DNA of 64,000 nt from Escherichia phage EJP2: the sequence record OQ411014.1, one strand, 5' to 3'. Both the position numbers and the translations under genes were made by a program. This document shows, one piece after another, positions 4,490-64,000 of the stretch; position 1 is the first letter of the stretch; each line of letters begins with the position of its first letter. The notes under the pieces are model-generated. The model made no database searches, was not told the DNA's origin, and saw only the letters and a program-made list of their open reading frames with translations.

Positions 4490-4503
4490 GTTGATTTATC
4501 CTT

Positions 4504-4815
4504 TTATTTTACGTTACGTGATCCACTCAAGTAGCTTTGGACTCGCTGGACTGTAGGTATACGAATTGTCTTTCCAGCTTGAAAATCATAGATTGGGTCT
4601 TCTAGTGATGGATTTAATAATGAAAAGATGTATAATAGTCTTTCATTACCATATAGTTCAGCAGCAAGTCTCCACGGCTGACAGTCATACTTCGATGGGA
4701 TGACATAATCTACATCAGAGTCTGCTGGTAGCAGACCGCGTGGAAGATTGTAATCCAGATACCACGTTTGTTTAACTTTTGAGTACGGTGAGTACTGGCT
4801 ATATTTAGAGGCCAT
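4504..4815 (-). CDS. Small LysM-like tail/baseplate protein (resembles P2 gpX-type)
   Basis: 103 aa; motif YVIPSKYD...LAAELYGN...GKTIRIP matches the LysM-like pattern; sits in the baseplate cluster. Confidence 0.4.
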   Translation of the reverse strand: MASKYSQYSPYSKVKQTWYLDYNLPRGLLPADSDVDYVIPSKYDCQPWRLAAELYGNERLLYIFSLLNPSLEDPIYDFQAGKTIRIPTVQRVQSYLSGSRNVK

Positions 4816-5570
4816 TAGATGAACCCTCCTTTGCGTAATAGTTTACCTGTTTTATAGTCATTTAGGTTGAACTTCTTTGTCATAAAATCAGATGTTGGTT
4901 GTTCTTCCATCTGAAGAGTTACAGATACTTTCTGTGGAACCCAGACTTCATTCTCTGCGTTCATGAATCCAGTACTTCTAAGTTGTTGGAAGAAAGCACG
5001 AGTACCTTTATCGGTAAAATCGTACGTATCAGAGCTTGTATTCACTGGCACTTGTATGTATGATACGTCATTAGCTAAGTTAATGGTGTAGCTTTTAAGT
5101 ATCACAGGAATATCATTGTACATGTACCGACCATAACCACTTAGTAATAGGATTGGTGGTGGTGCACCAACGACTGCACGGTTTTCAACTTGGTTAGCTG
5201 CTGCTTTTCGACCGAAGTCCATCAACGAGACGGAACGAATGAAATGTAAGCAACTCAACAAGTACATACCTTCTGCTGCTGTATTGGCATAGAAGTCACC
5301 TTGGATGGTGAAGTTCGTGTTGGAAGTACATTTATAGTTGTTGTATGAACTATTAGAATGAACTGGTTGTTCTGTTTCATAGTTCACTTGTCTACTTTCT
5401 GAGATAATAGGGGTATAGTTCCATACCATACCGTTAGTTGAACGTAGAAACGATAGTATTGTAGGATTCTTTGTGTCACCCAAGTCTCCGTACACGTAAT
5501 CACGTGCGGCATCCTTCGGGCGTAAACGGATTCTGCGGTCAATCATTTTTATTCTCCAAAAATTTGTCAT
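4815..5570 (-). CDS. Hypothetical protein, probable tail/baseplate module member
   Basis: 251 aa ORF, first gene of the minus-strand structural cluster; start may be the internal Met near 5547. Confidence 0.45.
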   Translation of the reverse strand: MTNFWRIKMIDRRIRLRPKDAARDYVYGDLGDTKNPTILSFLRSTNGMVWNYTPIISESRQVNYETEQPVHSNSSYNNYKCTSNTNFTIQGDFYANTAAEGMYLLSCLHFIRSVSLMDFGRKAAANQVENRAVVGAPPPILLLSGYGRYMYNDIPVILKSYTINLANDVSYIQVPVNTSSDTYDFTDKGTRAFFQQLRSTGFMNAENEVWVPQKVSVTLQMEEQPTSDFMTKKFNLNDYKTGKLLRKGGFI

Positions 5571-5604
5571 TTGATGTATTTATGATTGAGACAACCAGAA
5601 AAAA

Positions 5605-5615
5605 TGTGATATAAT
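5605..5615 (+). promoter_or_regulatory. Early-type promoter, extended -10 box TGTGATATAAT
   Basis: Exact TGTGATATAAT with TTGAGA about 18 nt upstream; about 50 nt before the 5669 start. Confidence 0.6.
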
Positions 5616-5668
5616 AGAGTGGTAGGACACGGATAGTCCTCTGAGATGTAAAACATGGAGACAATATA

Positions 5669-6532
5669 ATGATAAACACTAAGCCGAAGCGTAAGAAGTA
5701 TTTGAATAACGCTGACTTACTAAGAGAGATACACATAAGTAAAATGTCGTATTGCTATCTGCTAGATCGTGCTTATAGTATGTATGACTACATAGTTTTT
5801 GATGAATCCGAAATCACTGAAGAAATCTTAGAAAAGGCTTCAGCGGCTCGAATCAAACGACTAAACAATGAAGCGATTGACAAGATTCGCGTAAAAGATG
5901 GACTATCAGCTAAGAAAGCGAAAGAACAAGCTGAAAGTTTAGGTGTAGTATTGAGTACTGTACCACAAGATGAAGTAGTGATTCGTGTAATCACCGATGA
6001 ACATATCCCTTTCGATGCTTCCAACAAGAAAGGTGAGAAGTTCCGAGTAAACTTTGAACCATTCAAACACTACATCGTTGATGATTGTGGAGAGATAGTT
6101 GAAGTTGGTCGGTCACATTGGCGTGGTGATTTAGAAAACGGTGAGTTCTCAATGGACCACGGTCGAATTACAAATGAACTCGGTAAAATGTTTATCAAAC
6201 TTGCTGAACAGATTTCACACAAGACTAACTATAGACGTTATACGTACTTGGATGAAATGATGGGCGATGCTCGTGTTCAACTAGTCAAGAATGCTCTTCT
6301 CTTCAAAGAAAGTATTCTGTACAAAAAAGTGAAACCTGCTGTGCAGTTGAATCCCTTTTCATATTATACATCGTTTGTTAACAACGCGTTTCGTTCAGTA
6401 CTGAATGCTGAAAAGAATGTACGTAACATCCGTGATGATTTGTTGGAATTGAATGGCTTTAACCCAAGTCATACTCGTCAACTAGAAATCGAAATTCAAA
6501 TGCAAGAAAGGAAAAACAATGGCACTATTTGA
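5669..6532 (+). CDS. Putative late-transcription sigma factor (gp55-like), extended form
   Basis: N-terminus KPKRKKYLNNADLLREI resembles the T4 gp55 N-terminus as recalled; sits directly upstream of the gp47/gp46-like pair as in T4; 287 aa is longer than T4 gp55. Confidence 0.4.
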   Translation: MINTKPKRKKYLNNADLLREIHISKMSYCYLLDRAYSMYDYIVFDESEITEEILEKASAARIKRLNNEAIDKIRVKDGLSAKKAKEQAESLGVVLSTVPQDEVVIRVITDEHIPFDASNKKGEKFRVNFEPFKHYIVDDCGEIVEVGRSHWRGDLENGEFSMDHGRITNELGKMFIKLAEQISHKTNYRRYTYLDEMMGDARVQLVKNALLFKESILYKKVKPAVQLNPFSYYTSFVNNAFRSVLNAEKNVRNIRDDLLELNGFNPSHTRQLEIEIQMQERKNNGTI

Positions 6533-7553
6533 TAAAGCAGTTACTTTTACAGATATTCATCTTGGTCTAAAGAACAACAGTAAAGAACACAACGAAGATT
6601 GTTTGAACTTCGTGAAGTTCATGATTGCTGAAGCGAAGAAACAAAATATACGTACTTGCATCTTTATGGGAGATTTCTTCCATAATAGAAGCAACGTAAA
6701 CATAAGTACTTTGAACTATGGTTTGGAAGTTATGAAACTTCTAAACGAGAACTTCGATAAAGTATATTTTCTTGTCGGGAACCACGATATGTACCACAAG
6801 AACAAACGTGACATTACCAGTATCAATATGGCACAGGCGTTCGAGAACATACATTTCGTGAATGAGATGGAAACTATTGATGATTGCACTTTCATTCCTT
6901 TTATGATTGATGACGAATACACAAAGTTACCATCTCTACGAAGCAAATACGTTTTTGGTCACTTAGAATTACCTGGATACCTCTTGAATAAAATGGTCGA
7001 AATGCCTAACCACGGTAAAGAGACTCAAGAGTCATTCAATGGTTGTGAATACGTCTTTAGTGGACACTTCCATAAACGACAATCTAAAATTACACCAAGC
7101 GGTACTAAGGTACTGTACACTGGAAACTGTTTTCCACATGACTTTTCTGATACATGGGATGATGCACGTGGTATTATGATTCTTGAACACGGTAAAGACC
7201 CATATTTTGTTGCTTGGGATAAAGCACCGAAGTATAGAACCTTTACTTTGTCTGAACTTCTGTCTGACCCATCATATTACGTCCAAGATGATGTAATTGC
7301 TAAAGTTCAAATTGATATTCCTGTTACTATGGATGAGATTAGTTACATTCGTGAACTATTCAGTACTATTCATAATATCAGAGAGTTCAACGTAGTAACG
7401 AACAAGAAAGCAGTGATGGATGATGTTGAGAAGATGGTGGATTCATCTGAAGGGACTGAAACAGTCGATGAGATTGTACTACGTCAAATCAGTGAAATTG
7501 ATTCACCAATATTCGACAAGAATCTACTAATGCAAATTTACACATCACTATAA
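6519..7553 (+). CDS. Mre11/SbcD-like recombination nuclease (T4 gp47-like)
   Basis: N-terminal FTDIHLG phosphoesterase motif, GDFFH, GNHD; 344 aa; followed by the Rad50-like partner. Confidence 0.8.
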   Translation: MALFDKAVTFTDIHLGLKNNSKEHNEDCLNFVKFMIAEAKKQNIRTCIFMGDFFHNRSNVNISTLNYGLEVMKLLNENFDKVYFLVGNHDMYHKNKRDITSINMAQAFENIHFVNEMETIDDCTFIPFMIDDEYTKLPSLRSKYVFGHLELPGYLLNKMVEMPNHGKETQESFNGCEYVFSGHFHKRQSKITPSGTKVLYTGNCFPHDFSDTWDDARGIMILEHGKDPYFVAWDKAPKYRTFTLSELLSDPSYYVQDDVIAKVQIDIPVTMDEISYIRELFSTIHNIREFNVVTNKKAVMDDVEKMVDSSEGTETVDEIVLRQISEIDSPIFDKNLLMQIYTSL

Positions 7554-7568
7554 TCAAGGAGAGCACGG

Positions 7569-9713
7569 ATGCTTACAATCAAGAATATTACAATGAGAAA
7601 CTTTTTCTCCTTTGGGAATGCACCACAGACTGTAGTACTGGATAGTACTGATATATCCTTAGTTCTGGGTCAGAACAATGATGTACTTCTCGATGGAGCA
7701 GACAATTCCGGTCGTCGTAATGGGGTGGGTAAATCTGCCCTCATTCAAGGCATCGTATATGGTCTGTATGGTAAAAGTATCGGTAATGATATCAAGATTT
7801 CTAACTTGGTGAATAAAATCAACACTAAGAACTGTGAAGTATTCTTAGAGTTCAGTAAAGATGGTGTTGATTATCGAGTTGAGCGTGGGCGTAGCCCAAC
7901 GTATTTCAACTTCATCACCATGAATCAGGATAAAGCTGATGATGAATCTCGTGGTGAGAAGAAAGATACCCAAGAAGATCTAATTGAAGTTCTTGGTATC
8001 TCGCAACAATTGTTTGAACACATTGTAGTACTGAATGCTAACGTTGAGCCGTTCTTGTCATTGCCTGTTATCAAACAGCGTGATATGATTGAAGAACTTC
8101 TTGGTATTACTCAACTAACCGAGAAAGCTGAACTACTAAAGGACATGCATAAAGAATCGAAACGTCAAGCTGAACAAGAAAAGTTCAAGATTGAAACTAT
8201 TACTGCTTCGAACGAGCGTATCCAGCAGAGTATTTCTATTCTCCAGGATCAAGCCGCTGCGTTTGAGAAAGCTAAGTCTGAAAAGATTGATAGTATCCAA
8301 TCTAAGCTGGTGGATTTTGAGGGAGTTGATTTTGCTAACTTATTTGAAGTTGCGACTAAGAATGAGATGGCTAAACAATGTAATGCAGACAGAGCAGTTC
8401 TTGAAGGTCGAGTGAATACACTTGCTCAGAAATATCAAGACTACGATGCACAGTTAGTTGCAAATAAAGAGTTGATTCAACAAAGCATCCAAGAATTGAA
8501 CACTATTGACATTGTTCAGGAATTGAGTAACCACAATGAATTATCTTCGTGGTTAGAATTGGAGAAGATTCTAAAAGAATCATTGAGTACTAAGAAATTC
8601 AAGGAACAACAGATCAGTACTGCTGAACGTAACTTGAATATGCTAAAAAGTACTTTAGCAAAAGAAGAAAGTTCACTCCAAGATGTTCTTGATAACAAAT
8701 GTTCTCTATGTAAGGGTAATCTAGACCATGATGAAAATCATAAAACTCTAAAAGAGAAAGTACTAAGTTCGATTCAATCACTAAAGGAAGAGATTTCAGT
8801 TGTGGAATTGCAGATTAGTGCAACCGTAGCAGAAATTGATGCTTTGGAGATATTTGACTTGCCAGCTAAACCAGTTACAGTGTATCCTACATTGTCTGGT
8901 GCACAACTTCATGAACATAAACTAGCTGAATTAGTAAAACAGTTAGATGAAGTACAGGTCAATATCTATGAAGAAGAGTTACAGAATTCATATGCTAAGT
9001 TAGCAGAGACACCAGTACTGGAAGTACTAGATTGGTATAGTGTTCAAGAAGTTACTGAATTGAATTTCATGTTCGATGGACTAAAGTCTGATTTAGAACG
9101 AGAAATGAAGTCTGAGAATCACTTCGTATCTCAAATTGAGACACTAAAAACTACATCTCTACAAGCTGTATCGTATGATGAGTTCAATGAGTTCGATAAG
9201 TTGGCTAATCACCAAGAATTCTTGGCTAAATTGCTAATCAATAAGGACTCTTATGTTCGTAAACGTATCATTGAACAGAATATCTCGTTCTTGAATACAC
9301 GTTTACAGTACTATATCGATGCTGTTGGTTCATCTCATCAGGTAGTATTCATGAATGACCTAAGTGTTGATATTACATTGAATGACCAGACCTATGACTT
9401 CAAACAATTGTCTCGTGGTGAGCGTACTAGGGTTAACATTGCGTTATCCTTAGCATTCCGTGATACCTATGAGTCTCTATACCAAGCAATTAACCTCATT
9501 TGTATTGATGAGATGATTGATGTTGGTCTTGATAGTTCTGGTGTAATGAAAACGTGGACAATATTCCAAGATCTTGCAGCTATTCGTAACAAGAACGTAT
9601 TTGTCATCTCTCATAGAGAGGAATTACTCAGTAAAACTGACAAGATACTCAAGATTACGAAAGAAGCTGGATTTAGTTCAGTTGCTTATACAACATTGGA
9701 TGATTTTTTCTAA
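7569..9713 (+). CDS. Rad50/SbcC-like ATPase (T4 gp46-like)
   Basis: Walker A NGVGKSALIQ at N-terminus, long coiled-coil middle, C-terminal signature/Walker B region (LSRGERTRVNIALSLA ... LICIDEMID). Confidence 0.8.
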   Translation: MLTIKNITMRNFFSFGNAPQTVVLDSTDISLVLGQNNDVLLDGADNSGRRNGVGKSALIQGIVYGLYGKSIGNDIKISNLVNKINTKNCEVFLEFSKDGVDYRVERGRSPTYFNFITMNQDKADDESRGEKKDTQEDLIEVLGISQQLFEHIVVLNANVEPFLSLPVIKQRDMIEELLGITQLTEKAELLKDMHKESKRQAEQEKFKIETITASNERIQQSISILQDQAAAFEKAKSEKIDSIQSKLVDFEGVDFANLFEVATKNEMAKQCNADRAVLEGRVNTLAQKYQDYDAQLVANKELIQQSIQELNTIDIVQELSNHNELSSWLELEKILKESLSTKKFKEQQISTAERNLNMLKSTLAKEESSLQDVLDNKCSLCKGNLDHDENHKTLKEKVLSSIQSLKEEISVVELQISATVAEIDALEIFDLPAKPVTVYPTLSGAQLHEHKLAELVKQLDEVQVNIYEEELQNSYAKLAETPVLEVLDWYSVQEVTELNFMFDGLKSDLEREMKSENHFVSQIETLKTTSLQAVSYDEFNEFDKLANHQEFLAKLLINKDSYVRKRIIEQNISFLNTRLQYYIDAVGSSHQVVFMNDLSVDITLNDQTYDFKQLSRGERTRVNIALSLAFRDTYESLYQAINLICIDEMIDVGLDSSGVMKTWTIFQDLAAIRNKNVFVISHREELLSKTDKILKITKEAGFSSVAYTTLDDFF

Positions 9714-54924: not shown

Positions 54925-55554
54925 ATGTCTAAGAATTTTTCTAAATTGATGGAAACTGCTAACAAAGGTGAAGCAATGTCTTACATTCGTCTAAACGAAT
55001 CTAACATTGAGAAAGCTGAAATTGTTCTAGCAGTCAAAGGCGAGATTGTTGACAAGCTACAACGTCAAGCTGAAGTAATCAACAACATGGGCGTGGACGT
55101 ATTAGGCCCACTACTAGATCGTATCAAAGCTGAACATGGTCTTGAATCTGCTGAAAGTTTCCGTAACAACATCAGCGGCCTATTAGAGCACGCAGTAAAA
55201 ACTCTAATGGATGTAAAAGATAAGATCAGTACTGAAACTCTAAAACTAACTGGTGATATTACCAATGAACCTAGTATCAGTGAACTAGGTGCAGGTGCAG
55301 ATGAAATGTCTCTTGACATGCAAACTCCAGAGTTTGACTTTGAAGCAGATGCAGATTTTGAAGATATTGATGTTGAACCAACTCCAGCAGAACGTGAAAT
55401 GAAAGAATCCGTTCAACCTAAACGTATCGGTATTGAGATTGAAAGTAAGTCCGGTGTTGTAGGTCGCAAGTTCTTCGAGAGCAAGCAATCTATGAAAACT
55501 TGGCTAACTGAAAACGAACACAAAATCAAACGCGTTATTGGTATGGTAAAATAA
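54925..55554 (+). CDS. Hypothetical acidic protein (209 aa) with high-expression codon bias
   Basis: AAGGAAA RBS; codon usage resembles the capsid gene. Confidence 0.5.
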   Translation: MSKNFSKLMETANKGEAMSYIRLNESNIEKAEIVLAVKGEIVDKLQRQAEVINNMGVDVLGPLLDRIKAEHGLESAESFRNNISGLLEHAVKTLMDVKDKISTETLKLTGDITNEPSISELGAGADEMSLDMQTPEFDFEADADFEDIDVEPTPAEREMKESVQPKRIGIEIESKSGVVGRKFFESKQSMKTWLTENEHKIKRVIGMVK

Positions 55555-55563
55555 GGATACAGG

Positions 55564-55890
55564 ATGAAATTCAGTGAACTAACTGAAGTCGCTCCTGAGA
55601 AGAATATCCAAAGTATGATCATGACCACTGCACTATCTTTAGTTGCAACTGGTCGTGAAGAAGTGAAACTACAATCACTAATTGGTGAAATCAAAAAGCG
55701 TACTAACATTGATGTTCCATACAACGTTATGGTTGACATTCTTAGTAACCTACCTTTTGTAACTGATGTAAATAGTGATGTAGTTACCTTCGGTGGTGAG
55801 GATACCAGTACTGATGCCCCTGAAGAGGATTCAGCAGATATCGTTGCTGATATGGCATCAAAAGCGGCGTCAAGTAATTTGAAGCAATAA
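55564..55890 (+). CDS. Hypothetical acidic protein (108 aa)
   Basis: ORF directly following the previous gene. Confidence 0.45.
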   Translation: MKFSELTEVAPEKNIQSMIMTTALSLVATGREEVKLQSLIGEIKKRTNIDVPYNVMVDILSNLPFVTDVNSDVVTFGGEDTSTDAPEEDSADIVADMASKAASSNLKQ

Positions 55891-55910
55891 ATTGAGACAG
55901 ATTTACATAA

Positions 55911-55921
55911 TGTGATATAAT
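55911..55921 (+). promoter_or_regulatory. Early-type promoter TGTGATATAAT
   Basis: Exact box immediately upstream of the AGGAG RBS of the nuclease gene. Confidence 0.55.
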
Positions 55922-55933
55922 AGGAGTACAAGG

Positions 55934-56647
55934 ATGTACATACCACCAATCGTAGAACGATTCACTTATGCAGGTTACGAGAGAATAGAAGGCGGCCCAG
56001 AAGGTCGCCTTTATTCAACTCCAAGTGGTAATCTTCCTTCAGTAACTACAATATTATCTGCAACTGATAATAATGAAGGATTGAAGCAGTGGCGGGAATT
56101 CGTTGGAAACGAAAAAGCAGATGCAATCTGTTTGGAAGCAACAACAATTGGTACGTTTATGCACGAAAATCTGGAGAACCGATTGATTGGTAAACCTGAT
56201 CATGAAGGTGGAATGCCAGTACGAGTACTAGCTCGTAGAATGGCAGATGTTATTCAGAATGAAGCATGGCCTCATATAAATGAGGTATGGGGACAAGAAG
56301 TACCGTTGTACTATGAAGGATTATGGGCTGGCACTACTGACTTGGTAGGAGTTCACAATGGACTACCTACAATTATGGATTACAAAAATTCACGTAAAGA
56401 AAAGAAATGGAAACAGATTGAGAACTATCGTATGCAGCTTGCAGCTTATGCTCTTGCTCATAACTATCAGTTCGGTACGGATATAAATAGAGGCGTGATT
56501 TTTATTTGTGTTCGAAAAGATCCAAACAATCCAACATATCAAGAGTTCGTTGTTGAAGGAGATGACTTCAAAGAGGCTTGTAATATGTGGATTGAACGAG
56601 TTGAACAATATTATACTTTACGCGGAGAAATACAACATGGGAACTAG
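55934..56647 (+). CDS. PD-(D/E)xK-family nuclease (possible recombination exonuclease)
   Basis: GTTDLVGVHNGLPTIMDYKNSRK and YRMQLAAYALA fit the D...(D/E)xK...QxxxY arrangement of RecB/lambda-exo-like nucleases. Confidence 0.5.
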   Translation: MYIPPIVERFTYAGYERIEGGPEGRLYSTPSGNLPSVTTILSATDNNEGLKQWREFVGNEKADAICLEATTIGTFMHENLENRLIGKPDHEGGMPVRVLARRMADVIQNEAWPHINEVWGQEVPLYYEGLWAGTTDLVGVHNGLPTIMDYKNSRKEKKWKQIENYRMQLAAYALAHNYQFGTDINRGVIFICVRKDPNNPTYQEFVVEGDDFKEACNMWIERVEQYYTLRGEIQHGN

Positions 56648-57230
56648 AACTATGAAACAAGACATTTTTACTATCAAAGCAATCGAATCTAAAGGTTATG
56701 AACTAGAAGAACTAATCACTCGTTCCGATGAAGAGATCGAGAAACTCCCACTAAGTGCTAAACTAATCACTTTCATTCAAGAGCTAAAAACTCGTGGTGG
56801 TAAAACTGCTGACCAACTAGCAGAACAAATCGCAGACCTAATGATGCGTGAAGAAAATGAACCAGCACCTGCTGTAGTTGAAGCATATGCAGATGTTAGC
56901 GAAGAAGTAGAAGAACTACCAACTATTACAATGTTAGTTGATGATGAAACTGAAATTGTAGTACAAGGTGACGAAGTTACTATCGAAGCTGAAACTATTG
57001 TCGTAGAAACTAAAGAAGTCCCAGTAGAACGCACTGAAGCTGCTCCTGATGATATTGCAGTCATCCGTGAAGCACTAGCAGCGAAAGAAGCAAAATCTTT
57101 CCAACCTTTCATCAAACACTTGAAAGCAGCAGTTCCAGCATCTATCCTAGACGCAGTAGACAGTACTGTAGTATCTGATCTAATCGATGCTCGTATTGCT
57201 GAAGTCAAGGCAGCAGCAGAAAAGAAATAA
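56637..57230 (+). CDS. Highly acidic protein (about 197 aa) with high-expression codon bias
   Basis: GGAGA RBS before ATG 56637; E/D/V/T-rich repeats (EEVEELPTITMLVDDETEIVVQGDEVTIEAETIVVETKEV). Confidence 0.5.
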   Translation: MGTRTMKQDIFTIKAIESKGYELEELITRSDEEIEKLPLSAKLITFIQELKTRGGKTADQLAEQIADLMMREENEPAPAVVEAYADVSEEVEELPTITMLVDDETEIVVQGDEVTIEAETIVVETKEVPVERTEAAPDDIAVIREALAAKEAKSFQPFIKHLKAAVPASILDAVDSTVVSDLIDARIAEVKAAAEKK

Positions 57231-57260
57231 ATAATCCTATAATATTATAGGAGATAATAT

Positions 57261-57827
57261 ATGGCACAACAACAAGTCGCTCTACAGCAAGTACGTTCCG
57301 GTAAACAGCGTGATTTACCGGACGCTTTAGAGAAAGGTCAAATAGGTTTCAGTACTGACGTTGGTCGTTTGTTCATTGGTTTACCATCCGCATCAGAACC
57401 ATCCTCTTTGGTCGCGGGTCGTAATTGGACAAATGCACCTAACTCTGGTAAAGAAAACGTAGAAATACTAACAGAATTTACACCGTGGGAAATCATAAAT
57501 GATTTGGTAAGTAAGCCAAACGTTATTGAAGTCCCTCCGTCAACAACACTAACATCCACTATTCGAAGTAAATCACGTGCATTCATAAATTATGTTGCAT
57601 ATGATGACACAACTGTGTTAGAATCTGGATCAGTACAAATTGTAGTAGATGGTACACGTACTCTTCTATCACAACAAAACAACACGAATCAGGATGATGG
57701 TATCTTTATGATTACTTTCTTGGAACCTTCATATGATTCAACGTCTCAACGAATGACTATGCCAGTACAGAATAGTAGTACTCGCAAATTCACAGTTGAA
57801 TTCCTTATAAGTGGGTGGGATAAGTAA
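57261..57827 (+). CDS. Hypothetical protein (188 aa), possibly virion-associated
   Basis: Late-type box AATAAATAATCC at 57226 and an 8 bp palindrome abutting the RBS; motif QIGFSTDVGRLFIG. Confidence 0.45.
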   Translation: MAQQQVALQQVRSGKQRDLPDALEKGQIGFSTDVGRLFIGLPSASEPSSLVAGRNWTNAPNSGKENVEILTEFTPWEIINDLVSKPNVIEVPPSTTLTSTIRSKSRAFINYVAYDDTTVLESGSVQIVVDGTRTLLSQQNNTNQDDGIFMITFLEPSYDSTSQRMTMPVQNSSTRKFTVEFLISGWDK

Positions 57828-57830
57828 AAA

Positions 57831-57851
57831 AAGGCTTTCCCGCCTTTTTAT
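57831..57851 (+). terminator. Weak terminator hairpin
   Basis: AAGGC TTTCCC GCCTT stem-loop followed by TTTTA. Confidence 0.4.
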
Positions 57852-57891
57852 TCCCCTATATAAAATTACAGTAAACAAACAAGGATGTATA

Positions 57892-60213
57892 ATGATCAAC
57901 GTTACAAAACGTAATGGTGCGTTAGAAGCACTAGACTTAGAAAAAATTCACCAAATTCTTTTCTTCGCAGCAGATAAACTTAGTGGTGTTTCCGTATCTG
58001 AAATTGAGTTACGTGCTCAACTACAGTTCCATGAGGGCATCAAAACAAGTGAAATCCATGATATCCTTATCAAAGCTGCATCCGAATTGATTAGTGCTGA
58101 AACTCCTAATTACCAATACGTTGCTGGTCGTCTAATCAACTACTCTCTACGGAAAGTCGTTTACGGTACTTATGAACCAATCAAGTTCTCAACTCATGTA
58201 CAAGACCTAGTAGACCGTGGGATTTATGATCCTGAAGTACTGGAAAAGTATTCGATGCTTGAGATTGAAGAACTCGGCAAATACATCAAACATAAGCGAG
58301 ATGATAAATTCACTTATGCAGCGATGGAACAATGGCTCGGTAAGTATCTATGTAAGAACCGTGTTACTAAAGAAATTTATGAAACCCCACAGATGGCTTA
58401 CATGCTAATGTCTGCTATTATTTTTATGGAATACGACCCAAGTACTCGTATGTCCTATGTGAAACGCTTCTACGATTCCATTAGTAACTTTGATATTAGC
58501 CTACCAACACCAATCATGGCTGGTCTACGTACTAACACTCGCCAGTTTAGCTCTTGTGTAGTACTGAACATTGGTGATAGCCTTGATAGTATTGGTTCTT
58601 CTAACCATGCAATTCTACGTTACATCTCCCGTAAAGCTGGTCTAGGTATCAACTTTGGTCGTGTACGTGCAATTGACTCTGCTATTCGTGGTGGTGATGC
58701 AGTCCATACTGGCGTTATCCCATTCATCGCAGCAGCAGCAAAAACTGTAAAATCCTGTTCTCAGGGTGGCGTTCGTGGTGGTGCAGCAACTATCCACTTC
58801 CCACTATGGCACTATGAGTTTGAAAGTCTTGTAGTACTGAAGAATAACAAAGGAACCGAATTCAACCGTGTACGTCAAATGGACTACTGCTTCCAATTGA
58901 ACGAAACACTATATGAGCGTTTATGTACTCGCGGTGATATCTCTTTCTTCTCCCCAAGTGACGTTCCAGGGCTATATGAAGCATTCTGTGTTGATAATGC
59001 AACATTCGAAAAGCTATACGTACAATACGAAAACGACCCAAGCATTCGTCGCAAGACTATGCCAGCGGTAGAAGTGTTTACTATTCTAATGAACGAACGT
59101 TCCAGTACTGGTCGTATCTACATTCAGAATATTGACAGTACTAACGAACACTCACCATTTGACCCAACTGTTGCACCGATTGAACAGAGTAACTTGTGTC
59201 AAGAAATCGCACTACCTTCAGTTCCATTTGAAGATGTGAATGGTGATGATGGTCTAATCAGTCTATGTACACTAGCAGCAATCAACTGGGGTAACTTCGA
59301 AAACCCAAGTGATATGGAAAACGCGTGTGATCTATCTGTTCGTGCATTAGATTCACTACTAGCATACCAAGACTACCCAGTAGGCCACGCTAAACGTGCT
59401 ACAGACTTGTATCGTCCACTAGGTGTTGGTATCATCAACCTAGCTTACTTCCTAGCTAAACGTGGTCTACGCTACGATGAAGGTGCATTAGAGACAGTGA
59501 ACGAGTGGGCTGAAGCATGGTCTTACTACTTACTGAAATCTTCGGTAGAACTTGCAAAAGAGAAAGGACGTTGTGAAGGATTTGAAAATCTCCGGTATGC
59601 TCAAGGTATTCTCCCAGTAGATACTTATAAGCGAACTGTTGATGAACTAGTAAGTCCTGAACTAAAAATGGATTGGGATTCTCTCCGTGCTGATATCGCT
59701 GAATATGGCATTCGTAACGCAACTACAATGGCACTAATGCCAGCGGAAACAAGTGCACAAATCAGTAACAGTACTAACGGTATTGAACCACCACGTAGTC
59801 TAGTAAGTATCAAGGCATCCAAAGATGGTATCTTGAAACAAGTAGTACCAGAAATTGGTAAACTCAAAAACAACTACACCCTACTATGGGATATGAAAGA
59901 CAACAGTGGTTATCTGAAAATTGTTGCAGTACTGCAAAAATACATAGACCAGAGTATTAGTGCTAATACTAGCTACAACCCAGCTAACTATCCAGATGGT
60001 AAACTATCAATGAAACTTCTTCTTGGTGAATTACTACTCGCATATAAGTACGGCGTGAAGAACCTGTACTATATGAACACCAACGACCAAGCAGGAGAAG
60101 TTGATGTATCTAAAACCGCAACCGATGGGAATAAAGTCCCTGAATTGAAAGGATTTATCCTTTCAAATATTCCGCTCGATGATGAAGGTGGATGCGATTC
60201 CTGTACTATCTAA
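57892..60213 (+). CDS. nrdA: Ribonucleotide reductase large subunit, class Ia (NrdA)
   Basis: N-terminal ATP-cone start MINVTKRNGALEALDLEKIH; AAGGA RBS before ATG 57892; 773 aa; active-site Cys-containing blocks present. Confidence 0.85.
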   Translation: MINVTKRNGALEALDLEKIHQILFFAADKLSGVSVSEIELRAQLQFHEGIKTSEIHDILIKAASELISAETPNYQYVAGRLINYSLRKVVYGTYEPIKFSTHVQDLVDRGIYDPEVLEKYSMLEIEELGKYIKHKRDDKFTYAAMEQWLGKYLCKNRVTKEIYETPQMAYMLMSAIIFMEYDPSTRMSYVKRFYDSISNFDISLPTPIMAGLRTNTRQFSSCVVLNIGDSLDSIGSSNHAILRYISRKAGLGINFGRVRAIDSAIRGGDAVHTGVIPFIAAAAKTVKSCSQGGVRGGAATIHFPLWHYEFESLVVLKNNKGTEFNRVRQMDYCFQLNETLYERLCTRGDISFFSPSDVPGLYEAFCVDNATFEKLYVQYENDPSIRRKTMPAVEVFTILMNERSSTGRIYIQNIDSTNEHSPFDPTVAPIEQSNLCQEIALPSVPFEDVNGDDGLISLCTLAAINWGNFENPSDMENACDLSVRALDSLLAYQDYPVGHAKRATDLYRPLGVGIINLAYFLAKRGLRYDEGALETVNEWAEAWSYYLLKSSVELAKEKGRCEGFENLRYAQGILPVDTYKRTVDELVSPELKMDWDSLRADIAEYGIRNATTMALMPAETSAQISNSTNGIEPPRSLVSIKASKDGILKQVVPEIGKLKNNYTLLWDMKDNSGYLKIVAVLQKYIDQSISANTSYNPANYPDGKLSMKLLLGELLLAYKYGVKNLYYMNTNDQAGEVDVSKTATDGNKVPELKGFILSNIPLDDEGGCDSCTI

Positions 60214-60221
60214 TAACAATC

Positions 60222-60255
60222 AACTACCCAATGCTATGTTGGGTAGTTTTTTAAT
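60222..60255 (+). terminator. Rho-independent terminator
   Basis: AACTACCCAA TGCTATG TTGGGTAGTT hairpin followed by TTTTAAT. Confidence 0.65.
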
Positions 60256-60276
60256 AAAAAACGAGGTAAAGTAAAA

Positions 60277-61041
60277 ATGAAAGTTGATTATTACAAACCA
60301 ATGTCACTTGATTTTATTGAAGAATTTTGGGAAGACCTTGATATGAATCTTGTGATTCAGAAACAAAATCTACCAGAGGACTTCATTTCTAAACATATCA
60401 ATAAGCTAGACACTAACGCACTCGCACGGTATCAGAAACTATCTGTTGATTTCATCAAAGAGAAATGGGAATGGTTTGATAAGAATATTGTTATGCAATA
60501 TATTGTTATGCCGATGGAATGGATTGCAGAGAAGTGGGATGAACTAAAAAACACTGCTGCTGACACCATTGCGAAGTATCAGAAGCTAACAGTTGACTTC
60601 ATCAAAGAGAAGTGGGATACTTGGAGCACTGCTGCTACTGAGTTCATTTCGAAGTATCAGAAGCTAACAGTTGACTTCATCAAAGAGAAGTGGGATTATT
60701 TGGATAAGAACTATATTTCTCAATTCCAAACACTAACAACCGACTTTATCAAAGATAGTCTTTCAACATTGAATGCTAAAGCTGTTGCTGTATTCCAAAT
60801 CATAGAAGATAGTGTTCGTACTCTATTAGGACTACCAGCACCTGCCGCTACAATCACTGGTAATCAAATCCTTGCATTTGATCCATGTTCTGATGGTATG
60901 GCACGTTTCAACGCACACACACCAGACAACAATACAGTACTAACATGGAATGAACTACTACGTCTCCATGGTGGTACACAAGAAGGTAATCGTGATATTC
61001 ACTGGTTATCATGGAAATTAGGAAAATCTATAAACACATAA
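60277..61041 (+). CDS. Tandem-repeat protein (VDFIKEKW units) between nrdA and nrdB
   Basis: Four copies of an approximately 26-residue unit (YQKL[ST]VDFIKEKW...); 254 aa. Confidence 0.5.
   Translation: MKVDYYKPMSLDFIEEFWEDLDMNLVIQKQNLPEDFISKHINKLDTNALARYQKLSVDFIKEKWEWFDKNIVMQYIVMPMEWIAEKWDELKNTAADTIAKYQKLTVDFIKEKWDTWSTAATEFISKYQKLTVDFIKEKWDYLDKNYISQFQTLTTDFIKDSLSTLNAKAVAVFQIIEDSVRTLLGLPAPAATITGNQILAFDPCSDGMARFNAHTPDNNTVLTWNELLRLHGGTQEGNRDIHWLSWKLGKSINT
60573..60695 (+). repeat. Perfect 45 nt direct repeat (two copies, 78 nt period) inside the repeat-protein gene
   Basis: GAAGTATCAGAAGCTAACAGTTGACTTCATCAAAGAGAAGTGGGA at 60573-60617 and 60651-60695; a diverged third copy lies near 60430. Confidence 0.8.
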
Positions 61042-61051
61042 GGAAATGAGA

Positions 61052-62188
61052 ATGTCTGTATTTGCAAAAAATGAAAAATCCCATTTGGAAAAGAAAATGT
61101 TTTTTGACGAAGCAGTTGATATTCAACGTTTTGAACACGTAAAATATTCTGCTATTGATCGTCTATCTGAAACACAATTGGGGTTCTTCTGGCTTCCACA
61201 GGAAGTTGACGTAACTCGTGACAAGATTGACTTTGAAATGCTATCTCCAGTAGAGAAACACATCTTCACTTCTAACTTGAAACGTCAAATTCTACTTGAC
61301 TCTGTTCAAGGTCGTGGTCCAAGCCTAACACTACTTCCTTATACTTCTCTTCCAGAGATTGAAGGTTTCATTAGTATTTGGGATTTCGTGGAAGGTGCTA
61401 TTCATAGTCGTTCCTATACGCACATTATCCGTAACGTATATCCGAACCCATCTGAAGTATTTGACACTATGTTGGATATTCCAGAGATTACTTCATGTGC
61501 AGCGGACGTATCAAAGTACTATGACCGTCTTGATGAGTTGGGTTTACAGTACCGTATGCTTGGTGAAGGTACACATGTTGTAAATGGCGAAACTGTAGTA
61601 GTTGACATGCGTGAACTGAAGAAAGCACTATGGTTATGTTTGAACAGTATCAACGTACTGGAAGGTATTCGTTTTTATGTTTCCTTTGCTTGTTCGTGGG
61701 CTTTTGCACAGAATAAGAAAATGGAAGGTAACGCTAAAATCATCAAACTAATTTGTCGTGATGAGAACCTTCACCTTGCAGCAACACAAATGTGGTTACG
61801 TCTACTCAAGAAAGATGATCCAGATTTCGTGAGTATCGCTGAAGAATGTCAAGAAGAAGTTCAACAAATGTTCCTTGATGCAATTCGTCAAGAAGAAGAG
61901 TGGGCTGACTTCCTATTCAAAGACGGTTCTATGATTGGTGTGAACGCACAAATTCTGAAAGAATACATTCGTTTCATCGGCTCCAAACGTATGCAAGCGG
62001 TTGGTGTGAAATGTCCTTTCCGCGTAAGTAAAACTAACCCACTACCGTGGACTGAGTTCTGGATTAGCGGTTCTGAAATCCAGGTAGCTCCACAAGAAAC
62101 TGAACTAAGTTCATATATCACAGGTGGTATCGTGAACGATCTAGATGATGACTTCTTTGCTGAATTCAAATCTGTAACTACATTATAA
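61052..62188 (+). CDS. nrdB: Ribonucleotide reductase small subunit, class Ia (NrdB)
   Basis: Di-iron ligand pattern incl. FVEGAIHSRSY; 378 aa; ATG 61052 preferred over 61046 on RBS spacing. Confidence 0.85.
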   Translation: MSVFAKNEKSHLEKKMFFDEAVDIQRFEHVKYSAIDRLSETQLGFFWLPQEVDVTRDKIDFEMLSPVEKHIFTSNLKRQILLDSVQGRGPSLTLLPYTSLPEIEGFISIWDFVEGAIHSRSYTHIIRNVYPNPSEVFDTMLDIPEITSCAADVSKYYDRLDELGLQYRMLGEGTHVVNGETVVVDMRELKKALWLCLNSINVLEGIRFYVSFACSWAFAQNKKMEGNAKIIKLICRDENLHLAATQMWLRLLKKDDPDFVSIAEECQEEVQQMFLDAIRQEEEWADFLFKDGSMIGVNAQILKEYIRFIGSKRMQAVGVKCPFRVSKTNPLPWTEFWISGSEIQVAPQETELSSYITGGIVNDLDDDFFAEFKSVTTL

Positions 62189-62193
62189 AAGTA

Positions 62194-62226
62194 AATGGAG
62201 AGCATAATATGTTCTCCATCTTTTTG
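62194..62226 (+). terminator. Rho-independent terminator after nrdB
   Basis: ATGGAGAGCATAATATGTTCTCCAT hairpin followed by CTTTTTG. Confidence 0.65.
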
Positions 62227-62236
62227 AGGGTATATA

Positions 62237-62407
62237 ATGAATAGTTCTGTGTTTAGCTTTCTACCAGATACTGTCTATCGATTTCATTTGGTTGACGGAA
62301 ACCAAATAACTGGTATCATCACTCAAGTGTTTGATGATGGAATCGAGGTTTCTAATCGACGAATCGTTCAAGACAAAATTGTTTTTTGGTACGAAGTTGA
62401 AGAATAA
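62237..62407 (+). CDS. Small hypothetical protein (56 aa), below the ORF-track length cut-off
   Basis: Hand translation MNSSVFSFLPDTVYRFHLVDGNQITGIITQVFDDGIEVSNRRIVQDKIVFWYEVEE; GAGGG upstream. The opposite-strand track ORF 62261-62455 lacks signals. Confidence 0.35.
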   Translation: MNSSVFSFLPDTVYRFHLVDGNQITGIITQVFDDGIEVSNRRIVQDKIVFWYEVEE

Positions 62408-62426
62408 TTGAGATAAAAGATTTTTT

Positions 62427-62700
<274 letters not shown>

Positions 62701-62717
62701 GAACAGGAGCAATACTA

Positions 62718-63443
62718 ATGGCTAAAACTACTCTAGACCTGAATGCACAACTTCAGCAAGTAATCGAATTCATGACTGTTGTTGGTCAAACTGTGAATAC
62801 TCATGAAACTTACGCAACACCAAAAGTTGCAGACTTCCGTACTCGTCTCATCGAAGAAGAAGTTTTCGGTAAGAAAGAATTAGTTGATTCGATGAATAAT
62901 GATGATGTTGTGGGTGTTCTTGATGGTCTATGTGACGTTCTATATGTAACCTATGGTGCTCTAGCAACCTATGGTCTAGAACTAGACACTTCAGTATCTC
63001 ATCCGGTAGAAATCGCGGATGGTGGTTCTAAGCAGATTTTCAAACACACTGCATTTGAACTAATTCGCTCTATCTCTGGTGCAGTAGAGCAATACAAACG
63101 CGGCGTTGAACTAGGTGACTTCCGCACAATGATTCGTGGTCTTGGTAATGTCATTTTTCAAGTAACTCGCATTGCTGAAGAATACAATATCTCTCTTCAA
63201 GCACCATTCGCTGAAGTTCATGCGTCCAACATGAGTAAGCTATGTACAACCGAGCAGCAAGCAATTGATAGTATTGCTGAACGTGTAGAAGCTAATAACG
63301 ACAAGAGTGCTGATTATATTGGTGCTACTATTGCTCGCGTTGAAGTGAATGGTAAAGAGTACTTTGTTATTCGCCGTGCCTCCGACAATAAAGTACTGAA
63401 AGGTAATGGCTTCTTTGAACCTAACCTAGCTAAGTACGTGTAA
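62718..63443 (+). CDS. MazG-like nucleoside triphosphate pyrophosphohydrolase (possible dCTPase/dUTPase-type enzyme)
   Basis: LIEEEVFGKKELVDSMNNDDVVGVLDGLCDVLYVTYGALATYGLEL fits the MazG EExxE...D...DVL core. Confidence 0.45.
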   Translation: MAKTTLDLNAQLQQVIEFMTVVGQTVNTHETYATPKVADFRTRLIEEEVFGKKELVDSMNNDDVVGVLDGLCDVLYVTYGALATYGLELDTSVSHPVEIADGGSKQIFKHTAFELIRSISGAVEQYKRGVELGDFRTMIRGLGNVIFQVTRIAEEYNISLQAPFAEVHASNMSKLCTTEQQAIDSIAERVEANNDKSADYIGATIARVEVNGKEYFVIRRASDNKVLKGNGFFEPNLAKYV

Positions 63444-63451
63444 TAAAAAAA

Positions 63452-63485
63452 AGGGACATATAAAAAAATATGTCCCTTTTGGGTT
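63452..63485. terminator. Bidirectional terminator between convergent genes
   Basis: GGGACATAT AAAAAAA TATGTCCC hairpin flanked by an A-run and TTTTGGGTTTT. Confidence 0.65.
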
Positions 63486-64000
63486 TTAAAATTTCCACAT
63501 AGATTTTTGAACATCTGAAATAATCGGACTAATATCTGTAACAACTTGTGTTATTTGGTTATTGTCATACTCTCTATTGAGAGTTAGCATAATGTATCCA
63601 ATAACCGAATAACCATCATTGGCAGAAATAGGGATGGTTACTACAGTTTTATATGCAATATGAACATTGGCATTTTGATTACAAGTAAACTCACTACCAG
63701 CTTCAAAAATGTCTTCACATTCTGAACGAATAGCTGTGATGTTTTCATAATGCACTTTGTTCAACAGTATTTCTTGAAAAATACGTTTATTGATGATAGT
63801 ACTGTGTATCTTATCTTCGATTGGTTCTAAACCATTCCGATTTACCGACGCAACACCAATTTGGCCTTTAAACATATCCGATGTTTCGGAATCTTTACCT
63901 TCTGGTACGAATTTGTATAAAACCACGTTGACAACCTCTTCTTGTTGAGCTAGAATATCCGCAAAACGTGAATTGATTATTGCTGTTTCAGCACTTTCAC
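63486..64000 (-). CDS. Hypothetical protein, partial: 5' end lies beyond the window end
   Basis: Minus-strand frame is open from 63486 to the window edge by hand translation; the track start at 63926 is a GTG. Confidence 0.45.
   Translation of the reverse strand, partial: ESAETAIINSRFADILAQQEEVVNVVLYKFVPEGKDSETSDMFKGQIGVASVNRNGLEPIEDKIHSTIINKRIFQEILLNKVHYENITAIRSECEDIFEAGSEFTCNQNANVHIAYKTVVTIPISANDGYSVIGYIMLTLNREYDNNQITQVVTDISPIISDVQKSMWKF

Follow-up and report, generated by a model that had tools for sequence, protein, structure and literature searches.

Introduction

T4-like phages carry free-standing homing endonuclease genes at nrdA and nrdB, among them T4 mobE and the Aeh1 mobE that splits nrdA. 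Here we examine a 64,000-nt stretch of Escherichia phage EJP2 (OQ411014.1; hereafter the window), in which the slot between nrdA and nrdB is filled by an open reading frame (ORF) of 254 amino acids (aa) that starts with ATG on the + strand at 60277-61041, hereafter X. A sequence-only reading of the window had described this ORF as we find it, with a perfect 45-nt repeat inside it, and had set it against the nrdA-nrdB junction of T4-type phages. The window belongs to a Rak2-like jumbo myovirus, with no match among GenBank phages closer than ~80% nucleotide identity; Rak2-like phages have genomes of ~350 kb and are distant from T4 (CBB paper PMC5259590).

The second point of comparison is the tryptophan repeat gene (TRG) family, otherwise known mainly from insect poxviruses and giant viruses. 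One TRG protein, AMV254, has an F-box, the arrangement of the poxvirus ankyrin/F-box adaptors (PMC7728225). That F-box is the only functional hint for TRG proteins in the literature, and our literature search found no functional study of phage TRG proteins. We argue that X is a long-resident, often-lost and dispensable accessory gene that encodes a non-enzymatic TRG protein, probably an adaptor, and that its perfect repeat arose by gene conversion; to this explanation as a whole we give a probability of roughly 0.6.

The nrdA-nrdB junction of Rak2-like phages exists in three states

Searches of GenBank phages by tblastn and blastn recovered an X orthologue, 257 aa long and 64-68% identical, in the identical nrdA-X-nrdB slot in 18 records that represent 14 distinct phages. 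The carriers include CBB, XbC2, Kaldavass, XaC1, fHe-Yen9-03 and fHe-Yen9-04 as well as the coliphages fEgEco12, Ecwhy_1, BF17, EC.P1, WPEC3, WPEC5, Turkey3, UE-S1 and JNE01, and the orthologues span at least four genus-level lineages. Three metagenomic contigs have the same arrangement: L007 (99% protein identity), L023 and L008. In at least 40 further related records, including 121Q, PBECO4, phAPEC6, Munch, 7t3, Serratia BF, the pEa_SNUABM phages, Hallingskeid, Turkey5 and vB_Ec-M-J, nrdA and nrdB are intact and only a 54-94-nt spacer, without X, lies between them. By tblastn, phages without X at the junction had no copy elsewhere in the genome.

The presence of X varies within genera: fEgEco12, CBB and fHe-Yen9-04 have it, whereas vB_Ec-M-J, GAP32 and BF, respectively, do not. 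Because fEgEco12 and vB_Ec-M-J share 94.4% average nucleotide identity (ANI; PMC13070987), turnover of X must be recent. The boundaries are uniform. Where X is present, a terminator-like hairpin follows the nrdA stop; next come the ribosome-binding site of X, X itself and, within the 9-19 nt that separate X from nrdB, the nrdB ribosome-binding site. At empty sites the same hairpin is followed directly by the nrdB ribosome-binding site.

In GAP32 the junction holds a different gene, GAP32_299 (245 aa; contig L005, 3959-4696), which RefSeq names an endonuclease and which matches MUG113 (T5orf172-type, E 6.5e-5) and DUF723. Its sister phage CBB has X, and GAP32_299 is probably a free-standing homing endonuclease that took the place of X. 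We also considered a strongly diverged X for this gene and ruled it out, as the two show no similarity.

In two relatives the reductase genes themselves are interrupted. In contig L008 (Logan SRR21707705) both are split, nrdA by a NUMOD4/HNH_3 endonuclease gene and nrdB by a DUF723 gene (2041-4998, 5520-8020), and X is present as a 156-aa allele; the split nrd genes could be genes in pieces, or could reflect insertions of introns or homing endonuclease genes. In fHe-Yen9-04 (contig L009, 4672-6839, g298-g300), nrdB is interrupted by g299, a 245-aa gene product without a Pfam match whose N-terminus (..KPFYVGKGTG..) resembles a GIY-YIG motif; nrdB of fHe-Yen9-03 is uninterrupted.

Homing-endonuclease-type genes have a hotspot around nrdA and nrdB in Rak2-like phages too, as the sequence-only reading had supposed from T4-type phages: relatives of the window have a MUG113/DUF723 gene at the junction (GAP32), an HNH gene in nrdA, and DUF723-type or GIY-YIG-like genes in nrdB. 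The comparison of this junction across related phages, which that reading had proposed, yields three states, namely an empty site, a TRG gene and a homing-endonuclease-like gene.

X encodes an alpha-solenoid of the TRG family

An AlphaFold2 (AF2) model of X built on a 42-sequence alignment consisted entirely of short helices and had a pLDDT of 94.7 and a pTM of 0.84. It shows an all-alpha solenoid of 7-8 helix-turn-helix units (aa 5-186) followed by a small C-terminal domain, CTD-A (aa 187-254). An earlier model made with six orthologues only had reached a pLDDT of 57.6, and the Foldseek-PDB search run on that model is meaningless. In the present model, antiparallel helix pairs stack into a superhelix of HEAT/LRV-type architecture, and the best PDB fold matches are HEAT-like repeats; the short-helix alpha-solenoids with which we compared X were the leucine-rich repeat variant (1lrv), HEAT/alphaRep and the PBS-lyase HEAT-like repeats. 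The Pfam models HEAT, HEAT_2 and LRV did not match X even at E up to 10, and the likeness is architectural only.

By sequence, X falls into phrog_3532 (E 3e-38), a PHROGs family with no function assigned. When 1.84 billion cluster representatives were searched exhaustively with a profile, 1260 proteins matched at E<=1e-3 and 165 at E<=1e-10, nearly all in the repeat region only, with the 23-aa consensus ISxYQxLSEDFIREFxDKVDW; cluster look-ups gave no informative names. Foldseek (3Di+AA) against predicted viral structures (BFVD) gave 38 matches at E<=1e-3, headed by AMV029 of Amsacta moorei entomopoxvirus (E 2.2e-11, 27% identity over ~180 columns, TM 0.61). The matches include proteins named "tryptophan repeat gene family" (MySEV TRG, E 4e-11; MSV027, E 7e-11; MSV205, E 2e-8; MSV029), gp558-563 of Bacillus phage G (gp563, E 6e-10), and proteins of Pithovirus, Orpheovirus and Marseillevirus. 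By tblastn, genes of phages G and BpSp matched at E 1e-9 to 2e-9, the BpSp gene (E 2e-9) being annotated as TRG family, and Listeria phage LPJP1 matched in nine places.

Because Foldseek and tblastn both lead to named TRG proteins, we assign X to this family. X is homologous to its members and has the tandem ~23-aa repeats with a conserved aromatic residue or Trp. The multi-copy paralogy of the family is absent, each of the 18 Rak2-like records having X at a single place and the window containing no paralogue; we do not regard such paralogy as essential to TRG homology. The orthologues are already in GenBank as hypothetical proteins, and one modestly new result here is that phrog_3532 can be assigned to a known but uncharacterised family.

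Against Pfam, NCBIfam and PADLOC, X, its distant homologues and the C-terminal domain yielded only noise below threshold (Hda_lid, KRAB, rad10, others), and among PDB sequences neither X nor a C-terminal domain profile had a match. Like the sequence-only reading, which had recognised no known nuclease motif, we found no GIY-YIG, HNH, LAGLIDADG, His-Cys box, PD-(D/E)XK, EDxHD or MUG113/T5orf172 domain in X by Pfam, PHROGs, NCBIfam, PDB sequence or predicted fold. The flavodoxin or thioredoxin fold and motifs of ribonucleotide reductase (RNR) accessory proteins (NrdI, NrdH, glutaredoxin-like) are also lacking in X, which is all-alpha and has no Pfam or NCBIfam match.

CTD-A is one of several end domains joined to TRG repeats

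CTD-A is the best-conserved part of X: 36 of its 68 residues are invariant across 12 orthologues, which share the motif ..I.A.dPC.DG..R...HTP...TVLTWN.LL..H....DIHWL.KLGK. The domain is absent from Pfam, NCBIfam and the PDB. A word-indexed search with CTD-A alone returned two orthologue fragments only, and it took an exhaustive profile search to detect the domain in other proteins. With a profile that combined CTD-A with two repeat units we obtained ~1950 matches, one of them from Bacillus phage AgentSmith; those that cover most of the query (150-220 aa) carry CTD-A after TRG repeats. A few small proteins of 150-200 aa share the domain in the form PFdPCxDGxxRYLxHTxxxExITWNxLLExHxxxxDIxWL. Proteins with CTD-A occur in unrelated phage contexts, beside tail-fibre, HNH or phiKZ-like structural genes. 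We also weighed the C-terminal H-N-N-H residues as a possible HNH-like motif and rejected this, because they are spaced too closely, the His varies among proteins with the domain and the model is made of helices.

Other TRG-repeat proteins have DUF7666, at the start in some, or an end domain with ..NSFGLSAWT..KIRC... Since members of the family join their repeats to CTD-A, to DUF7666 or to the NSFGLSAW domain, TRG repeats are a module with interchangeable small end domains. Among metagenomic proteins (P0006, P0008, P0011-P0014, P0016, P0018, P0023), many TRG-repeat proteins end in this second unannotated domain of ~90 aa, with the pattern ..Y.IAYKS.R.....S.FNFQY.Y..G..Y......D...ENSFGLSAWT......Y......L.KV.I...D....V....KIRC.K..V.

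X probably acts as a protein-binding adaptor

By analogy with repeat-plus-effector viral adaptors, X probably functions as a protein-binding adaptor or scaffold, in which the solenoid surface would bind one partner and CTD-A would dock a second. The partner may be a host factor, or a phage protein of nucleotide metabolism or replication. X is dispensable, with many natural knock-outs among its relatives. Its ratio of nonsynonymous to synonymous substitution rates (dN/dS) is 0.04-0.09, the same as that of nrdA, and X is thus a functional, constrained gene; because the ratio is low, an arms-race surface is unlikely. The low value points to a conserved partner, one required only in certain hosts or under certain conditions.

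A rather unlikely alternative is that X is dedicated to RNR, as a scaffold or regulator that binds NrdA/NrdB and, for example, tethers the reductase to a complex that synthesises deoxynucleoside triphosphates (dNTPs) or replicates DNA. Such a role would explain why X is kept in the nrdAB operon: its position between nrdA and nrdB, so close to the nrdB start, is strictly held across several genera, it lies within a nucleotide-metabolism cluster, and a solenoid suits scaffolding. However, at least 40 related records have intact nrdA and nrdB and no X anywhere, CTD-A proteins sit in unrelated phage neighbourhoods, and position alone is weak evidence in phages. A specific RNR link is possible, and we do not favour it.

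X is an old resident of the junction that has often been lost

Neighbour-joining trees of X, NrdA and NrdB agree on their main groups (the coliphages; the window lineage; CBB, Kaldavass and XbC2 with Yen9-04; XaC1), and the empty-site phages are nested among X-bearing ones. The protein distances of X follow those of NrdA (Mantel r 0.86, p 0.0002; 10 phages, 45 pairs), with X the more diverged of the two in 44 of the 45 pairs (median ratio 1.44). Recent spread as cargo is thus unlikely, since a gene spread in that way would be less, not more, diverged than its flanks.

One empty junction preserves remnants of the gene. Between Turkey5, which lacks X, and JNE01, which has it, identity is 97.9% for nrdA and 98.5% for nrdB. 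In the 94-nt spacer of Turkey5, the left part aligns in JNE01 with the spacer between nrdA and X, the ribosome-binding site of X and its start, changed from ATG to ATA; the right part corresponds to the last 29 nt of X and the X-nrdB spacer, with TATAA/AAATT micro-homology at the joint. Judged by this alignment, the spacer is evidently a deletion scar, left by a near-complete deletion of X between short homologies. A weaker sign of such a scar is the ATAA that 121Q and Hallingskeid retain in their spacers, abutting the nrdB ribosome-binding site. X evidently already stood at the nrdA-nrdB junction in the common ancestor of several genera, and the most economical history would comprise one ancient presence, at least five losses and one replacement, in GAP32.

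The sequence-only reading had proposed a novel cargo gene. That X was recently acquired and is spreading into the hotspot, either alone or carried along with homing endonucleases that cleave close by, we consider very unlikely and already largely refuted. Its variable presence, within genera and at 94% ANI, would fit such a gene, as would the genuine homing-endonuclease-type genes that occupy the junction and both flanking genes and a synonymous divergence above that of the flanks, which hints at some recombinational shuffling. Against this, X does not bear the signature of mobility, an insert younger than its flanks or incongruent with them: its distances track and exceed those of NrdA, its site and boundaries are constant across the at least four genus-level lineages that carry it, phages empty at the junction hold no copy elsewhere, and Turkey5 retains a scar. 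Nor does it encode a nuclease, integrase or recombinase domain; it encodes an all-alpha solenoid under strong purifying selection. According to the sequence-only reading, the cargo proposal would fall to a conserved, non-variable orthologue in distant relatives with a known non-mobile function, and the comparison brought to light just such an orthologue, save for the known function.

The perfect repeat reflects gene conversion between two old units

The 45-nt stretches 60573-60617 and 60651-60695 are identical, as first noted from the sequence, and the exact match extends to 47 nt at a spacing of 78 nt, within a 65-nt pair at 92% identity. This is the sole exact direct repeat of at least 25 nt across the window and is far beyond chance. 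Parsing unit boundaries from the sequence against the helix pattern of the AF2 model, we found 7-8 units of 23-26 aa (U1 to U8; Table 1), so the array is larger than the four VDFIKEKW units of the sequence-only reading; the exact peptide occurs three times (aa 58-65, 107-114 and 133-140), and Trp is found in U1 and U3-U6. The 78-nt period proposed earlier is correct for the spacing of U5 and U6, but units across the array give either 69 or 78 nt. Tandem Repeats Finder reported no array in X, because the remaining units are too diverged in DNA. In nine orthologues the 45-nt cores of U5 and U6 agree at only 27-37 of 45 positions, so exact DNA identity exceeds what the protein repeat needs.

We compared the window with L007, a Logan assembly contig of SRR10874834 that is 98.8% identical to it over 8.8 kb (106 differences) and whose U5 and U6 cores agree at 39 of 45 positions. 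X differs between the two at seven sites, six of which (60582, 60585, 60586, 60600, 60603 and 60604) lie inside 23 nt of U5. At all six the window has the base of the homologous position in U6, and L007 differs from U6. Across the 8.8 kb this is the only substitution cluster, the sole other dense cluster of differences being a 6-nt indel. Because ~0.26 substitutions are expected per 23 nt, and all six of those seen match the paralogous unit, they cannot be independent mutations. In outgroups U5 reads DFIQEKW or DFISEKW, as in L007, whose bases they share at four to five of the six sites; since the outgroups share the state of L007, with DFIQEKW ancestral, that of the window is derived. On this comparison, a tract of U6 of at least 23 and at most 47 nt overwrote the homologous part of U5 in the window lineage by intragenic gene conversion.

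A relative shows a second kind of exchange. The orthologue on contig L008 (P0005) has 156 aa from the conserved start, and its DNA is 82% identical to that of the nearest full-length relative, P0004. About 101 codons are missing in frame, and both ends of the deletion lie in the ..DFIKEKW.. cores of U3 and U7, giving a hybrid unit. As read from its sequence, P0005 is evidently a natural deletion allele with a U3/U7 hybrid, made by unequal crossover and driven by repeat homology. The repeats of X thus do recombine, by conversion as well as by crossover.

Divergence between the window (55173-64000) and L007 is uneven along its length, at 1.77% in nrdA, 2.47% in ORF 57261-57827, 0.26% in nrdB and 0.42% in ORF 55934-56647, which suggests mosaic recombination at the kilobase scale. 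In ORF 54925-55554, whose homologue is annotated in relatives as a structural protein, the window has a tandem 6-nt GGTGCA duplication relative to L007 (55287-55292), a two-residue insertion of the slipped-strand indel type.

Of the recent duplication or ongoing recombination that the sequence-only reading had seen in this repeat, recombination stands and duplication falls. A recent tandem duplication of the 78-nt unit, with copy number still variable in the population, is highly improbable: the 47 identical nt at 78-nt spacing within the longer 92% pair would fit it, and a natural allele with fewer units is known, but U5 and U6 occur in the same order in every orthologue, where they are 60-82% identical, and the pair is consequently not a new duplication. 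Gene length is steady at 254-258 aa, and L007 has both units, with its six differences confined to 23 nt, so that unit number is unchanged and sequence homogenised; for the allele in the window, duplication is already refuted. An artefact of mis-assembly or of a mixed-population consensus is barely credible, for although polishing software can homogenise repeats and the evidence is at the level of assemblies, the independent L007 assembly has the same architecture, the ORF is uninterrupted, the residues changed by conversion (L, K) are those of the neighbouring unit, and ordinary reads are longer than 47 nt.

Local signals and neighbouring genes

Coordinates are collected in Table 1. The mechanical gene call for nrdA, GTG 57811, overlaps the end of the upstream gene; the true start (MINVTKRNG...) is conserved in all relatives. 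For nrdB the mechanical call was 61046. X and nrdB are tightly packed into one transcription unit between two hairpins. A GC-rich hairpin with a T-run follows nrdA in every Rak2-like phage examined (L001-L017), with or without X, and is a possible attenuator of transcription or determinant of the nrdA:nrdB ratio. A scan for sigma-70 promoters found fewer matches than in shuffled sequence, and none between the nrdA hairpin and X. As a promoter has no room between this hairpin and the ribosome-binding site of X, we infer that X can be transcribed only together with nrdB, by read-through of the hairpin, and that the two are co-expressed in this way early or midway in infection. The surrounding genes form a nucleotide-metabolism cluster with a PD-(D/E)XK nuclease, a MazG-like pyrophosphohydrolase, DHFR and RNase H.

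Table 1. Features of the nrdA-X-nrdB region (window coordinates).
Feature	Coordinates	Strand	Basis
nrdA, class Ia ribonucleotide reductase large subunit	57892..60213	+	ORF list; N-terminus kept in 16 relatives; ATP-cone/Ribonuc_red domains on near-identical L007 gene
Terminator-like hairpin and T-run directly 3' of nrdA	60222..60248	+	position kept in all relatives, X present or absent
GAGG ribosome-binding site of X, 10 nt 5' of ATG	60263..60266	+	read from sequence; purine-rich equivalents (e.g. GGAG, GGAT) before the X start of orthologues
X, 254-aa TRG-family protein	60277..61041	+	phrog_3532 E 3e-38; AF2 pLDDT 94.7; fold matches
Units U1-U4 (aa 5-27, 28-50, 51-73, 74-99)	60289..60573	+	U3 bears first VDFIKEKW; U4 least conserved
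47-nt repeat, copy 1, the maximum conversion tract	60572..60618	+	
Unit U5 (aa 100-125), conversion recipient	60574..60651	+	
Minimum conversion tract	60582..60604	+	six substitutions vs L007
47-nt repeat, copy 2, in U6 (donor)	60650..60696	+	
Units U6 (aa 126-148), U7 (aa 149-171) and degenerate U8 (aa 172-186)	60652..60834	+	
C-terminal domain CTD-A (aa 187-254)	60835..61038	+	conservation; profile search
GGAAAT ribosome-binding site of nrdB, immediately 3' of X stop, in 10-nt spacer	61042..61047	+	sequence
nrdB, ribonucleotide reductase small subunit, conserved start MSVF...	61052..62188	+	ORF list; relatives
Terminator-like hairpin 3' of nrdB, closing the X-nrdB unit	62195..62219	+	

Discussion

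Several points count against our explanation. The polarity of the conversion depends on one close relative and the outgroups, and at one of the six sites (ATA in L007) it is L007 that looks derived. Most sequenced relatives have an empty junction, and ancestral presence therefore depends on the rooting and on a single clear scar. Some absences could have come about by recombination with an empty allele and not by fresh deletion. At synonymous sites X has diverged 1.2-3 times as much as nrdA within a given pair of phages (2.23 against 0.75 for fEgEco12 and UE-S1), in comparisons among the window, L001-L003, L009, L010 and L013-L015; either nrdA has been homogenised by recombination or codon bias, or the alleles of X are older than their flanks. 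Exchange of old alleles, the empty one included, between co-infecting relatives probably contributes, and the history would then not be strictly vertical. The adaptor idea draws only on the fold class and on an F-box precedent in a eukaryotic virus, and no TRG protein has an experimental or annotated function. Finally, CTD-A has an invariant Cys (Cys204), an invariant Asp (Asp240) and a His that is nearly so, which could form a small catalytic or metal site that profiles miss; Trp243 is invariant as well.

If a long-resident TRG gene is nonetheless the right description, the junction has a non-nuclease occupant that is an old resident and not an invader, which cautions against reading every hotspot insert as mobile. 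Hypothetical proteins of jumbo phages in phrog_3532 can be labelled TRG-family alpha-solenoids, with a confident fold, and CTD-A is a newly defined domain without a Pfam model, recovered by the profile that matched ~1950 metagenomic and phage proteins. X is also a clean natural case, documented at base level, in which the units of a phage repeat-protein gene have exchanged sequence by short-tract (23-47 nt) conversion and by unequal crossover. If TRG proteins are adaptors that hijack host or phage machinery, X, being single-copy, dispensable and embedded in an operon, would be a handy entry point in culturable phages; candidates are the E. coli phages fEgEco12, JNE01 and UE-S1, with Turkey5 and vB_Ec-M-J as natural knock-outs. 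The practical gains are modest but real, and little here should greatly surprise specialists.

A more far-reaching version, which is speculative and on balance doubtful, would make TRG solenoids with exchangeable end domains (CTD-A, DUF7666, NSFGLSAW) a widespread class of viral adaptors in jumbo phages, entomopoxviruses and giant viruses. X would then be retained in the nrdAB operon because it links a second partner to RNR, or to a host factor limiting the supply of dNTPs or phage replication, and conversion and crossover between units would retune the binding surface.

Compared with known systems, X shares with the homing endonuclease genes of T4-like phages and with GAP32_299 the same genomic slot and a presence that varies among close relatives; unlike them it has no GIY-YIG, HNH or MUG113 domain, is older than its flanks and diverges together with them. 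As in concerted evolution of intragenic repeats, a short tract in X makes two units identical even at synonymous sites, and a relative carries an in-frame hybrid-unit deletion; homogenisation in X is local and rare, however, and the other units and lineages stay 60-82% identical in DNA.

The poxvirus adaptors that join repeats to an F-box (chordopoxvirus ankyrin/PRANC; AMV254) resemble X in having a repeat array with a small conserved terminal domain, encoded by a dispensable accessory gene (PMC7728225). CTD-A, unlike the terminal domain of these adaptors, is not an F-box (no Pfam match). To our knowledge, bacteria have no SCF ubiquitin ligase, and therefore any second partner of X must differ from that of the poxvirus proteins. 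Within the TRG family (AMV029, MSV027, MSV029, MSV205, AMV254; phage G gp556-563, BpSp), which is multigene in entomopoxviruses, phage G and LPJP1, X stands apart as a single-copy gene fixed inside the nrdAB operon, with several 26-aa units, a distinct C-terminal domain and a conserved Trp that comes five residues earlier in the unit than in the family consensus (FIKEKW vs FIREFxDKVDW). It is to this family that X is nevertheless most alike, in fold, in sequence and in its ~23-aa units with the core YQxL(S/T)xDFIxE..W.

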